Source of the DNA: Opitutales bacterium
GTDB lineage: Bacteria; Verrucomicrobiota; Verrucomicrobiia; Opitutales; PNEW01
Length of the DNA stretch: 64,000 bases
Direction: 5' to 3'
Assembly (NCBI GenBank): GCA_965197745.1
Contig: CBDANS010000007.1
Coordinates: forward strand, 608,001 to 672,000
Program-made: the position numbers and the translations under genes
The notes under the pieces: model-generated
What the model was told of the DNA's origin: nothing
The model's database searches: none
What the model saw: the letters and a program-made list of their open reading frames with translations, nothing else
Shown here: in pieces, positions 49,882-51,729 of the stretch
Layout: each line of letters starts with the position of its first letter
Numbering within the stretch: position 1 is the stretch's first letter

Positions 49882-50025
49882 CTAAATTTAATATAAATCT
49901 TCGTCTTCGTCCTCGTTCTCGTCTGCATCCTAAAAAGTCTTCAATTTCTGGCTCTATGAATACTTATAAATAGTAAATTGGGAGATGCTTGTGGATTAAT
50001 TCTGGACGAAGACGAAGCAATTGTG

Positions 50026-50958
50026 TCATGAAGCAAGAGCTAATTGATGTTTTTTAAGAAGGGACTGCAGATGAATAAGGAGTTTTCTCATGGCCGCAAC
50101 GAGAGCACATTTGTAAGGCATTCCCCGATCGACTAACCTCTGCACATAAGGTTTGATCACGGGGTTATGTTGAGCCGCGGTGCGAGCAGCCATATAGAGA
50201 CATTTTCTGACTTTGGCACGACCTCCTTTTATCGATCGCTTAGAATGGGTCTTGCCACTGTCACGATTATAGGGAGCCAGACCGGCAAGAGCGACCAACT
50301 GATTGCGGCCCAGATGAGTCATTTCGCTCATATAAGCCAGGAGGGTCCAAGTCGTCACTTCACCGACTCCTTTGACTGAAGCGATAAGTTCGGCTTTCGC
50401 ACGCAGTGGATCATTCTCGTTGATGAGCAATCGCAGCTGTTTGTCGATGCGATCGATTTCGTTCTCAACGAAACGGATCATGCGTTGGATGGAAAGGTGG
50501 ATGCTCTTGGGACTGTTCTGCAAGCGGTTCTTCTCGCGGCCAAGCTGTTCGCTCAGATGATGGCGTCGATCCAGTAAAGCAGTCATCTGTTGCTGTTCGG
50601 GTGTCGGGGGAGCTGTTGGGGACAACTGCTTTTGCTGAGCAAAGCGCAGCAATACCTTGGCATCGATCTTATCGGTCTTTGCACGGATGCCATCGCTCGT
50701 GGCGAAGGCCCGTACGCGCGCAGGATTAATCAGGCACACCACAATCTGCGCTTCATGCAAAGCGCTCAACAAGGCGCGCTCGTAGCCTCCTGTGGCTTCG
50801 CACACCACAAAGGGGGCATCCATCTTTCCTATGGCTTTGAGCAGTTCTTTGAGTCCCGACTTGTCGTTGCTTAGAGCGTAACTTTGCTCTGCACTTTGCA
50901 CTTGCAAGGTGTTTTTGGCTATATCTATGGCGATGAGGGTGTGTTTTTTTTCATTCAT
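50026..50958 (-). CDS. IS110 recombinase (DEDD RuvC + Tnp20 domain)
   Basis: AIDIAK, CEATGGYE, KTDKIDA, GVG, GLAP...DSG; intact 310 aa. Confidence 0.95.
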   Translation of the reverse strand: MNEKKHTLIAIDIAKNTLQVQSAEQSYALSNDKSGLKELLKAIGKMDAPFVVCEATGGYERALLSALHEAQIVVCLINPARVRAFATSDGIRAKTDKIDAKVLLRFAQQKQLSPTAPPTPEQQQMTALLDRRHHLSEQLGREKNRLQNSPKSIHLSIQRMIRFVENEIDRIDKQLRLLINENDPLRAKAELIASVKGVGEVTTWTLLAYMSEMTHLGRNQLVALAGLAPYNRDSGKTHSKRSIKGGRAKVRKCLYMAARTAAQHNPVIKPYVQRLVDRGMPYKCALVAAMRKLLIHLQSLLKKHQLALAS

Positions 50959-50960
50959 GG

Positions 50961-51230
50961 CTATCTCGGTCTTGTCAAGATGAGCTCGCGGGGGTATAAT
51001 CCGGGCTCTTTCAATTGTTTGAGATTAGCCAGGTTAGATCGGAGGTTCCCAGGCTTCGTCTTGAACTCCGCTAACGCGGGTTCCAGAGGCAGAATGAACT
51101 CTTCCGATTTGCTCCCGGCTCCTCTTATTAGGAGTCGGGAGTTCCTGGCACTCTCAACCGTAGACACTGTTGAAAGCTTTTTCCAGTCCTTCCTCCGACG
51201 TGTTACGATGACCCATTCTCGGAAGGACTC
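50961..51230 (-). ncRNA. Predicted IS110 bridge RNA (target-binding loop ~51039-51107, donor-binding loop ~50963-51025); 5' end uncertain
   Basis: Guides TCTGCCTCT (51085-93) and AAGACGAAG (51054-62) match the target flanks; ACAATTG (51012-18) and ACAAG (50971-75) match the donor junction. Confidence 0.88.
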
Positions 51231-51339
51231 AAAAGGTTGTCTTATCATCGCGGGGTAACCTACAAGAGGCAGACGCAGACGAAGAGTGTAATATGATATA
51301 TTTGTGGTGGTAAAGGGTAGATATTAATTACCCCCCATT

Positions 51340-51474
51340 TTCGTCTATGTCCTCGTCTGCGTCTGCATCCTAAAAACCTTCAATTCCCGGCGATTGGAAT
51401 CCTCTCAATAGCGAACCAGAAGATGGTAGTCTGTTGATCCTGGACGAGGTCGAAGAGGCAGACGAAGACGAAGA
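51340..51474. repeat. Mini-element with inverted hexamer arrays; uninterrupted sibling of 49897-50017 + 51267-51285
   Basis: Shared GTCTGCATCCTAAAAA and TGGACGA.G.CGAAGAGGCAGACG segments. Confidence 0.8.
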
Positions 51475-51499
51475 TTTTATATATTATTTTAACCCGCTT

Positions 51500-51729
51500 T
51501 CTCCAAGCCCCAGCGGGGCGATACATATTTAGCCCATTGCGCAAGCAATGGGTATTGTGATCTACCATCCATTTTCAGAGCCCTGGAAGGTCGACACATA
51601 TAGACTGTCAATCCGGTTTGTGTCGCCCCTCTGGGGCTTTTTTTTTCGTTAATTATTTCCCACAGCTAAAGCTATGGACTATGATTGTTTCACCCCTCCG
51701 GGGTGAAATCAACTGGGTAGACGAAGAGC
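51500..51729 (-). repeat. ~230-bp composite palindromic element, copy 2
   Basis: Reverse complement of 37025-37256. Confidence 0.85.

Follow-up and report, generated by a model that had tools for sequence, protein, structure and literature searches.

An IS110-group insertion sequence from an Opitutales-like bacterium with a predicted IS621-type bridge RNA in its left end

Introduction

In the window (the whole stretch of 64,000 nt of DNA that was analysed), an IS110-group insertion sequence lies on the minus strand, with a non-coding left end of 306 nt ahead of its transposase gene. The question raised by this locus is whether that left end encodes a bridge RNA and, if so, which bases of the target and donor DNA it would read. 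Bridge RNAs have been predicted for 85.7% of the IS110 elements of ISfinder (Durrant et al. 2024; PMC11208160), and a preprint reports 32,190 predicted bridge-RNA loci with 12–40 guide nucleotides (10.64898/2026.10.21.760802). With 9 + 7–9 + 7 + 5 guide nucleotides and perhaps 4 more (about 28–34 in all), the present locus falls inside that range.

An initial annotation, made from the sequence alone, had proposed for the left end the layout of an IS621-type bridge RNA with a CT core. The left end with its two internal loops, the IS110 recombinase encoded behind it and the covariation described below all bear this proposal out. We consider it very likely (probability roughly 0.9) that the locus is an IS110-group insertion sequence, intact and recently active, whose left end encodes an IS621-type bridge RNA, an interpretation supported by sequence comparison. 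The element is thus a well-supported new example of the system described in 2024, and not a new kind.

The element, its boundaries and its copies

Counted with the CT core at both junctions, the whole element is 1,251 bp long (otherwise expressed, 1,249 bp plus one CT; Table 1). The genome (4.45 Mb in 7 contigs) contains four full copies, with 1–2 positions different among them. The boundaries are fixed independently of any reading of the guides, since the four copies diverge exactly at the junctions, since in the public assemblies the element forms a separate unitig of 1,256 nt, with a depth about 4-fold that of the flanks, and since uninterrupted TCTGCCTCTTCGTCTT sites are present in the genome. 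On the minus strand, the left junction reads GCG-TCTGCCT(51273..51267)-CT(51266..51265)-TGTAGG(51264..51259) and the right junction ACAATTG(50024..50018)-CT(50017..50016)-TCGTCTT(50015..50009). CT is present at both, and among the repeats listed by the search none pairs the ends of the element as inverted copies. A long non-coding left end, a short right end and no duplicated target bases other than the core dinucleotide make up the layout of the IS110 group. All the junctions, guides and stems quoted in the initial annotation are read directly at their minus-strand places in the sequence.

The left flank is TCTGCCT in 4/4 genomic copies. The right flank is TCGTCTT in two copies and TCGTCCT in the other two, which have 80 identical flank bases since both sit in copies of one repeat.

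A solo remnant (L005, G000:C7:1372245-1372309) corresponds to about the first 80 nt of a related left end (80% identical). It contains half of the hairpin module described below and is preceded by ...TGCCT-CT, the same kind of target.

Table 1. Positions of the element, its target and its predicted RNA features in the window
Feature	Coordinates	Strand	Evidence or remark
IS110-group element	50016..51266	-	four genomic copies of 1,251 bp; unitig 50011..51266 at ~4x flank depth
Left target (LT) TCTGCCT, CT core next at 51266..51265	51267..51273	-	identical in 4/4 copies; equals the left target guide
5′ hairpin 1, conserved accessory module; core CCGAGAAUGGGUC..GUCGGAGG at 51222..51192, covarying outer stem	51184..51231	-	
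5′ hairpin 2	51150..51177	-	MFE fold; kept in the MAG relative
5′ hairpin 3, directly before the target loop	51114..51141	-	consensus fold of three elements
Target-binding loop module: basal stem, LTG, apical hairpin 51083..51063, RTG, basal stem	51038..51108	-	consensus fold, covariance model
Left target guide (LTG) UCUGCCU + CU (TCTGCCTCT)	51085..51093	-	sequence; flank covariation in the MAG relative and at 13/20 loci
Right target guide (RTG) AAGACGAAG (51062..51054), reverse complement of CT+TCGTCTT, plus handshake C 51053	51053..51062	-	sequence, family alignment
Donor-binding loop module: AUCUC stem, LDG, apical hairpin 51008..50982, RDG, GAGAU stem	50963..51025	-	covariance model
Left donor guide (LDG) ACAAUUG, the last 7 nt of the element (left donor)	51012..51018	-	sequence
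Right donor guide (RDG) ACAAG (50975..50971), reverse complement of CT+TGT, plus handshake A 50970	50970..50975	-	sequence
Transposase / bridge recombinase, 310 aa	50026..50958	-	Pfam, IS621 and ISCro4 matches, residue check
Right end: 8 nt past the stop codon (C + left donor ACAATTG), CT core next	50016..50025	-	sequence read
Right target (RT) TCGTCTT	50009..50015	-	only TCGTC constant across copies and relatives

The recombinase

By its sequence, the encoded protein is an IS110-family DEDD/Ser recombinase. Both Pfam domains of the family are present well above their cut-offs, PF01548 with E 2.4e-23 (83 bits, cut-off 29) and PF02371 with E 2.6e-19 (69.8 bits, cut-off 21.3). Among proteins with solved structures, it matches IS621 (8wt6, E 6.7e-38 with phmmer, over 292 residues) and ISCro4 (9t56, E 2.7e-38). 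Residues D12, E54, D96, D99 and S234-G235 align with D11, E60, D102, D105 and S241-G242 of IS621, which are catalytic according to the structure (PMC11208158). The 310-aa frame is intact in 4/4 copies, with the DEDD and Ser residues present in each; the proteins are identical in three copies and one has M280I.

The two loops and their guides

The left end folds better than expected for its composition (MFE fold, z = -3.41, with 0/100 shuffles folding as well). The stems that the initial annotation had given for the closing of the two internal loops are found (TCGGA/TCCGA and the hairpin GAAC.CGC-GTTA-GCG.GTTC for the first; ATCTC/GAGAT and GAGC/GCTC for the second), and the consensus fold leaves the guides outside its paired stems.

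In this copy, LTG and RTG each match target plus core over 9/9 positions. LTG has the same sense as LT and core and would thus pair with the bottom strand. The donor guides match the tips of the element itself (ACAATTG 7/7, ACAAG 5/5). Bases of the core are present in LTG, RTG and RDG; in LDG, ACAAUUG is followed by AA, not CU, and in the family alignment the relatives have 0, 1 or 2 core bases there. A further discontiguous guide stretch, AUCU, is possible and ambiguous. A chance origin of the two guide 9-mers can be set aside, since their expected counts in 306 nt of the same composition are 5e-4 and 2e-3.

The base after each right guide has been called the "handshake guide" (PMC11208158). 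Here, the possible partner of C 51053 is G7 of the donor, and that of A 50970 is T7 of the target.

A search of Rfam 15 with E up to 10 gave no bridge-RNA match for the region, and Rfam 15 may hold no such family; membership of the bridge RNAs therefore rests on the covariance model built here.

Conservation of the structure in the IS110 family

The covariance model of the two loops was built from this element, from the element of an Opitutales MAG and from a metagenome element with 54% identity, and was searched against 84 sources. There are 28 matches: 26 are full length on the sense strand, just 5′ of an IS110 gene, and two are antisense and weak. In the resulting alignment, which is fitted to its own covariance model and is favoured by it, 94.9% of the cells are paired and 28/31 pairs show a change on both sides. 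Such pairing is reached by 0/500 shuffles, and with slid partners at most 44.5% of the cells are paired. Compensatory changes occur in both loops. In the target loop, they are found in 10/10 pairs of Helix 1 and 6/8 pairs of Helix 2; in the donor loop, in 5/5 pairs of Helix 3 and 7/8 pairs of Helix 4.

Guides and flanks in related elements

The closest relative occurs as ten copies in one Opitutales MAG, with protein identities of 79–84%. Its donor loop and RTG are the same as here, and its LTG is UCAUCGU-CU vs. UCUGCCU-CU, with three left-guide bases changed. The ten left flanks follow these changes (TCATCGC in five copies, TCATCGT in four, TCTTCGT in one). The C/T difference adjoining the core would correspond to a G-U wobble against the bottom strand. 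The pair of elements thus looks like a natural reprogramming: with a shared donor loop and right guide, three bases of the left guide differ and the insertion sites differ in step.

Two of the MAG copies carry indels in the RNA and are probably decaying. L012 has another sequence in place of hairpin 2; L014 has extra bases ahead of hairpin 3 and is without GTTCA in the hairpin of the target loop.

For a wider comparison, the guides were taken purely by alignment column in 20 of the 28 rows; left out were repeat copies (L012, L014, L152, L020 and L021), the partial L022 and the two antisense matches. The locus's own LTG, taken as the 9 nt ahead of the apical hairpin, recurs within 420 nt upstream with no more than one mismatch at 13/20 loci, in 12 of these 13 directly before the TGTA start of the element, and foreign LTGs match in 10/380 pairings. 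On the other side, LDG followed by the reverse complement of RTG was sought shortly after the end of the gene, at a distance of 930–1,060 nt downstream. When up to one mismatch is allowed, this predicted right junction is present at 11/16 loci with enough sequence, vs. 2/236 with foreign RTGs. The own-LTG match is absent at 7/20 loci and the right junction, at that threshold, at 5/16; short flanks and register errors are among the causes, and some copies may have decayed.

The guides of homologues therefore covary with their own flanks, as the initial annotation had expected of a bridge RNA. Two earlier forms of the comparison were abandoned. A naive exact-word search between guides and flanks at 80 genome loci was too noisy, with many chance 6-mer matches, and was replaced by a donor-signature search and then by the column-defined guides. 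A matrix of hand-picked guides (6.2/7 on the diagonal vs. 2.5 off it) was set aside as circular, since the guides had been chosen by their match.

The handshake bases behave similarly. The base of the target-binding loop can pair with left-donor position 7 at 14/20 loci and that of the donor-binding loop with left-target position 7 at 16/18, with all of the four types A-T, T-A, G-C and C-G in use. The family alignment thus offers a case in which handshake bases covary in the wild.

These data also bear on another origin of the matches between loops and flanks, namely that they are leftovers at the DNA level (copied pieces of target, or sites read by the protein) with no RNA guide involved. Short matches do come easily in this genome: CTTCGTC occurs 1,046 times in it, and the target is a short-period repeat, so that words like GACGAAG are common nearby. 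However, matching words are found at the same loop positions in elements with proteins 28–54% identical and with unrelated targets, the strand rule holds throughout (left guide in the same sense, right guide as reverse complement), the stems covary and the foreign-guide controls fail. We therefore hold an origin as DNA leftovers to be exceedingly improbable, and the bridge-RNA reading is kept.

In the distant IS110 element L057 / L152, the left flank is a tandem array, in which the element's own empty target CATTCAC-CT-ACTCACC is present four times before the occupied one.

Length of the target

The initial annotation had given the target complementarity as 16 nt (7 + core + 7), which would be longer than what IS621 reads. 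The part that stands is the pairing itself: CT+TCGTCTT, with which AAGACGAAG can pair over its full length, is present in 2/4 copies, this one among them, and a longer RTG is described for some orthologues of IS621 (Durrant et al., PMC11208160). The last two positions fare differently. Right-target position 6 is C in the other two copies (TCGTCCT), the MAG copies have the same RTG with variable bases at positions 6–7 and only TCGTC common to their right flanks, and TT follows at only 7/16 of the empty 14-mer sites. In addition, most relatives have a conserved GU, and not guide bases, at the two extra RNA positions; the variable right guide in the family alignment is 5 nt plus AG. The 16-nt claim is overstated, and a target read over 16 nt appears unlikely. 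The copies and the family support, at the level of sequence comparison, a right target that is effectively of 5 nt and not 7, and a target of 14 nt (7 + CT + 5); the match across all four copies is indeed 7 + 2 + 5. With its compact size and 14 nt of target reading, the element is a candidate bridge recombinase to try.

Comparison with IS621

The likeness to IS621 of E. coli, as described for its 177-nt bridge RNA (PMC11208160, PMC11208158), extends over protein, RNA and DNA. Both proteins have PF01548 and PF02371 with DEDD and Ser-Gly residues. In both elements, the RNA is encoded in the left end, the core is CT, the target loop comes before the donor loop, LTG is of 9 nt, the left guides have the sense of the DNA and the right guides are reverse complements, and there are handshake bases. 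The donor has the form ACAnTnn-CT-TGTA, and the insertion is into a repeated palindromic element.

There are also differences. The protein is only distantly related to that of IS621. RTG is of 7–9 nt here vs. 4 in IS621, and LDG is without coverage of the core. The left end, with 306 nt, has three hairpins before the target loop, whereas one 5′ stem loop is described for IS621. The right end is only 8 nt long, no junction promoter was recognised, and the host is a Verrucomicrobiota (Opitutales-like) bacterium.

Proposed movement and state of the element

For transcription, circle formation, RNA–protein binding and catalysis, we reason by analogy with IS621. The element would excise as a circle joining ...ACAATTG-CT-TGTAGG..., and an RNA expressed from the left end would fold into the two internal loops, which would bring the circle junction together with a TCTGCCT-CT-TCGTC site. 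Within the donor loop, ACAAUUG and ACAAG would read the circle junction. A tetramer of the recombinase, bound to the RNA, would swap strands at the CT core via composite Ser-DEDD sites; after strand exchange, the handshake bases (C after RTG, A after RDG) could pair with the partner DNA.

The same guides would be readable in a fossil element, with copies that are immobile, the RNA not being made or the enzyme being dead. The scans for promoters are compatible with this: on the minus strand in the integrated context no convincing sigma-70-like promoter was found, and at the computed circle junction the best sigma-70-like site scores 8/12 and lies wholly inside the left end. Among the listed sequencing runs that contain the stretch, none is on record as RNA. 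We did not find a circle or empty-site joint in the contigs of assemblies X1, X2, X5 and X10, in which rare forms are dropped. Finally, in the related assembly X5, the collapsed contig of the insertion sequence is without 7 nt at about position 50890, in the transposase gene, where the frame would shift; contigs drop variants, so this gap may not apply to all copies. Against a fossil stand the four copies, with differences at only 1–2 of 1,251 positions, open frames and catalytic residues kept. The ratio of element depth to flank depth (~4x, 5x and 7x between assemblies) is a weak hint of differing copy number. An immobile fossil is, on balance, very unlikely, and an intact, recently active element remains the preferred reading.

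Three further observations belong to this subject. A site TTGCTT-17-GATAAG, seen by eye across the circle junction, was dropped, since the MAG relative lacks it. On the plus strand at 50972-51000, opposite the donor loop, there is a sigma-70-like TTGTCA-17-TATAAT (11/12) from which an RNA would be antisense to the bridge RNA; shuffles give one such site by chance. Joints from 49916/49924 to 51451/51453 connect flanking repeat copies and are uninformative on the element.

Hairpins before the target loop

The three 5′ hairpins are found by the MFE fold where the initial annotation had placed them. Hairpin 3 is the probable counterpart of the only 5′ stem loop in IS621, for which structural conservation and a contribution to binding are described (PMC11208158). 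In the consensus fold of three elements, 11/12 of its pairs have changes on both sides in L102. At the place of hairpin 2, a hairpin of different sequence is present in G057 and G150 (by eye).

Hairpin 1 is of another nature. Its apex, CCGAGAAUGGGU-loop-ACYCGUCGGAGG, is nearly invariant, and the stem below covaries freely; the core is invariant partly because the search used it. Among close IS110 relatives the module is optional: L057 and L041 have it, and L033, with nearly the same loops, is without about 90 nt there. Within this genome, all nhmmer matches to it are in the four copies and the one left-end remnant, and we therefore rejected it for this genome as a host REP or landing pad. Over 401 Verrucomicrobiota genomes, the module is present in five, this one among them; its place is in IS110 left ends in two of the five, in the 3′ end of an IS3 element in one and in the 3′ end of an IS256 element in one.

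A pattern scan of metagenomes gave at least 117 stretches, and 80 of them were retrieved along with their flanking DNA. Among the matches listed, the full module is present in 27 of these 80; in the other 53, the pattern occurs by chance in coding DNA that is GC-rich. One stretch that passed the regular expression (L109) is such a chance match and was left out of the alignment. A tblastn match to IS110 occurs in 8/27 stretches with the full module vs. 0/53 chance ones. With Pfam on frames of at least 240 aa, a mobile-element enzyme is found in 21/27: IS110 in 12, rve/IS3- or IS30-like in 5, Mutator/IS256 in 1, IS66 in 1, and an integrase or group II reverse transcriptase in 2. The position of the module varies with the context. 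In IS110 left ends, it is upstream of the transposase gene in the sense direction; in one IS110 right end (L107), it is downstream, again in sense; in IS3 and IS256 (L089, L123, L145, L151), it lies just past the transposase stop, in antisense. Other loci with the module include L098, L102, L203 and L204.

In an alignment of 44 distinct instances, each of the six stem pairs below the core is changed on both sides in 6–14 sequences. The sense strand folds better in 40/44, and outside the core there are 60 G-U pairs on the sense fold vs. 34 on the antisense fold. A promoter (GAGAAT ... CGTC) was considered for the module and rejected, since the spacing varies between 13 and 16 nt from instance to instance (by eye). 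No Rfam family matched it, and a literature search on the core string and on stem-loops of IS110, IS256 and IS3 gave no title or abstract on such a motif. The module does not appear to fit a k-turn, loop A of the hairpin ribozyme or a tRNA-like arm.

The contexts found (IS110 in left end, right end and antisense, IS3, IS256, IS66, an IS30-like element, and beside a group II intron) lead us to suggest, tentatively and as something we still hold to be rather doubtful, that hairpin 1 is a portable structured RNA module taken separately into the non-coding ends of unrelated families of insertion sequences. If so, it would be an undescribed accessory of mobile DNA, with the role of leader of the guide RNA in IS110, and it might act as a handle for a host factor or as a signal for processing or stability. 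Should it prove to be a functional RNA, many jumping genes would seem to share an interaction with the host. A parallel is ISPpu9 of Pseudomonas putida, an IS110-family element that is inserted in REP-like repeats and has an additional RNA module, separable and present in other places too (PMC12288879). As described there, Ssr9 of ISPpu9 is downstream of the transposase gene, whereas the module here is upstream of the bridge RNA, a contrast drawn from description.

The natural target and the surrounding repeats

The uninterrupted 16-mer TCTGCCTCTTCGTCTT occurs at 7 other sites of the genome vs. 0.002 expected, and 38 times when up to one mismatch is allowed. The uninterrupted 14-mer, ending in TCGTC, occurs at 16 sites, with 0 for the reversed control. 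The target is found within a unit of about 190 bp, in one of its imperfect inverted arms, which are made of CTTCGT-like hexamers. The insertion is thus sequence-specific and into a repeated palindromic element, with 4/4 copies located behind TCTGCCT-CT in inverted-repeat arms built of hexamers.

In the window, 49883-50017 and 51264-51483 together form two tandem units of about 190 bp, with arms of CTTCGT/CTGCGT/CTGCCT hexamers. Similar arms are scattered through the genome along with the 16 empty target sites, and in the Opitutales MAG a related repeat carries an extra hexamer at the insertion point. A crude regular expression for the hexamer repeat was dropped (13 matches vs. 30 in the reversed control).

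On the minus strand at 51506-51552, about 240 nt outside the insertion sequence, there is a match to the Rfam motif Acido-Lenti-1 (RF01687) with 33.2 bits, just below the cut-off of 37. Scoring covered 150 of 744 candidates and gave at least 10 matches to this motif in the genome, four of them over the cut-off. At 8/11 Acido-Lenti-1 sites, at least two hexamer-arm words occur within 250 nt (random mean 0.5), so that the motif may be part of the repeat family targeted by the insertion sequence.
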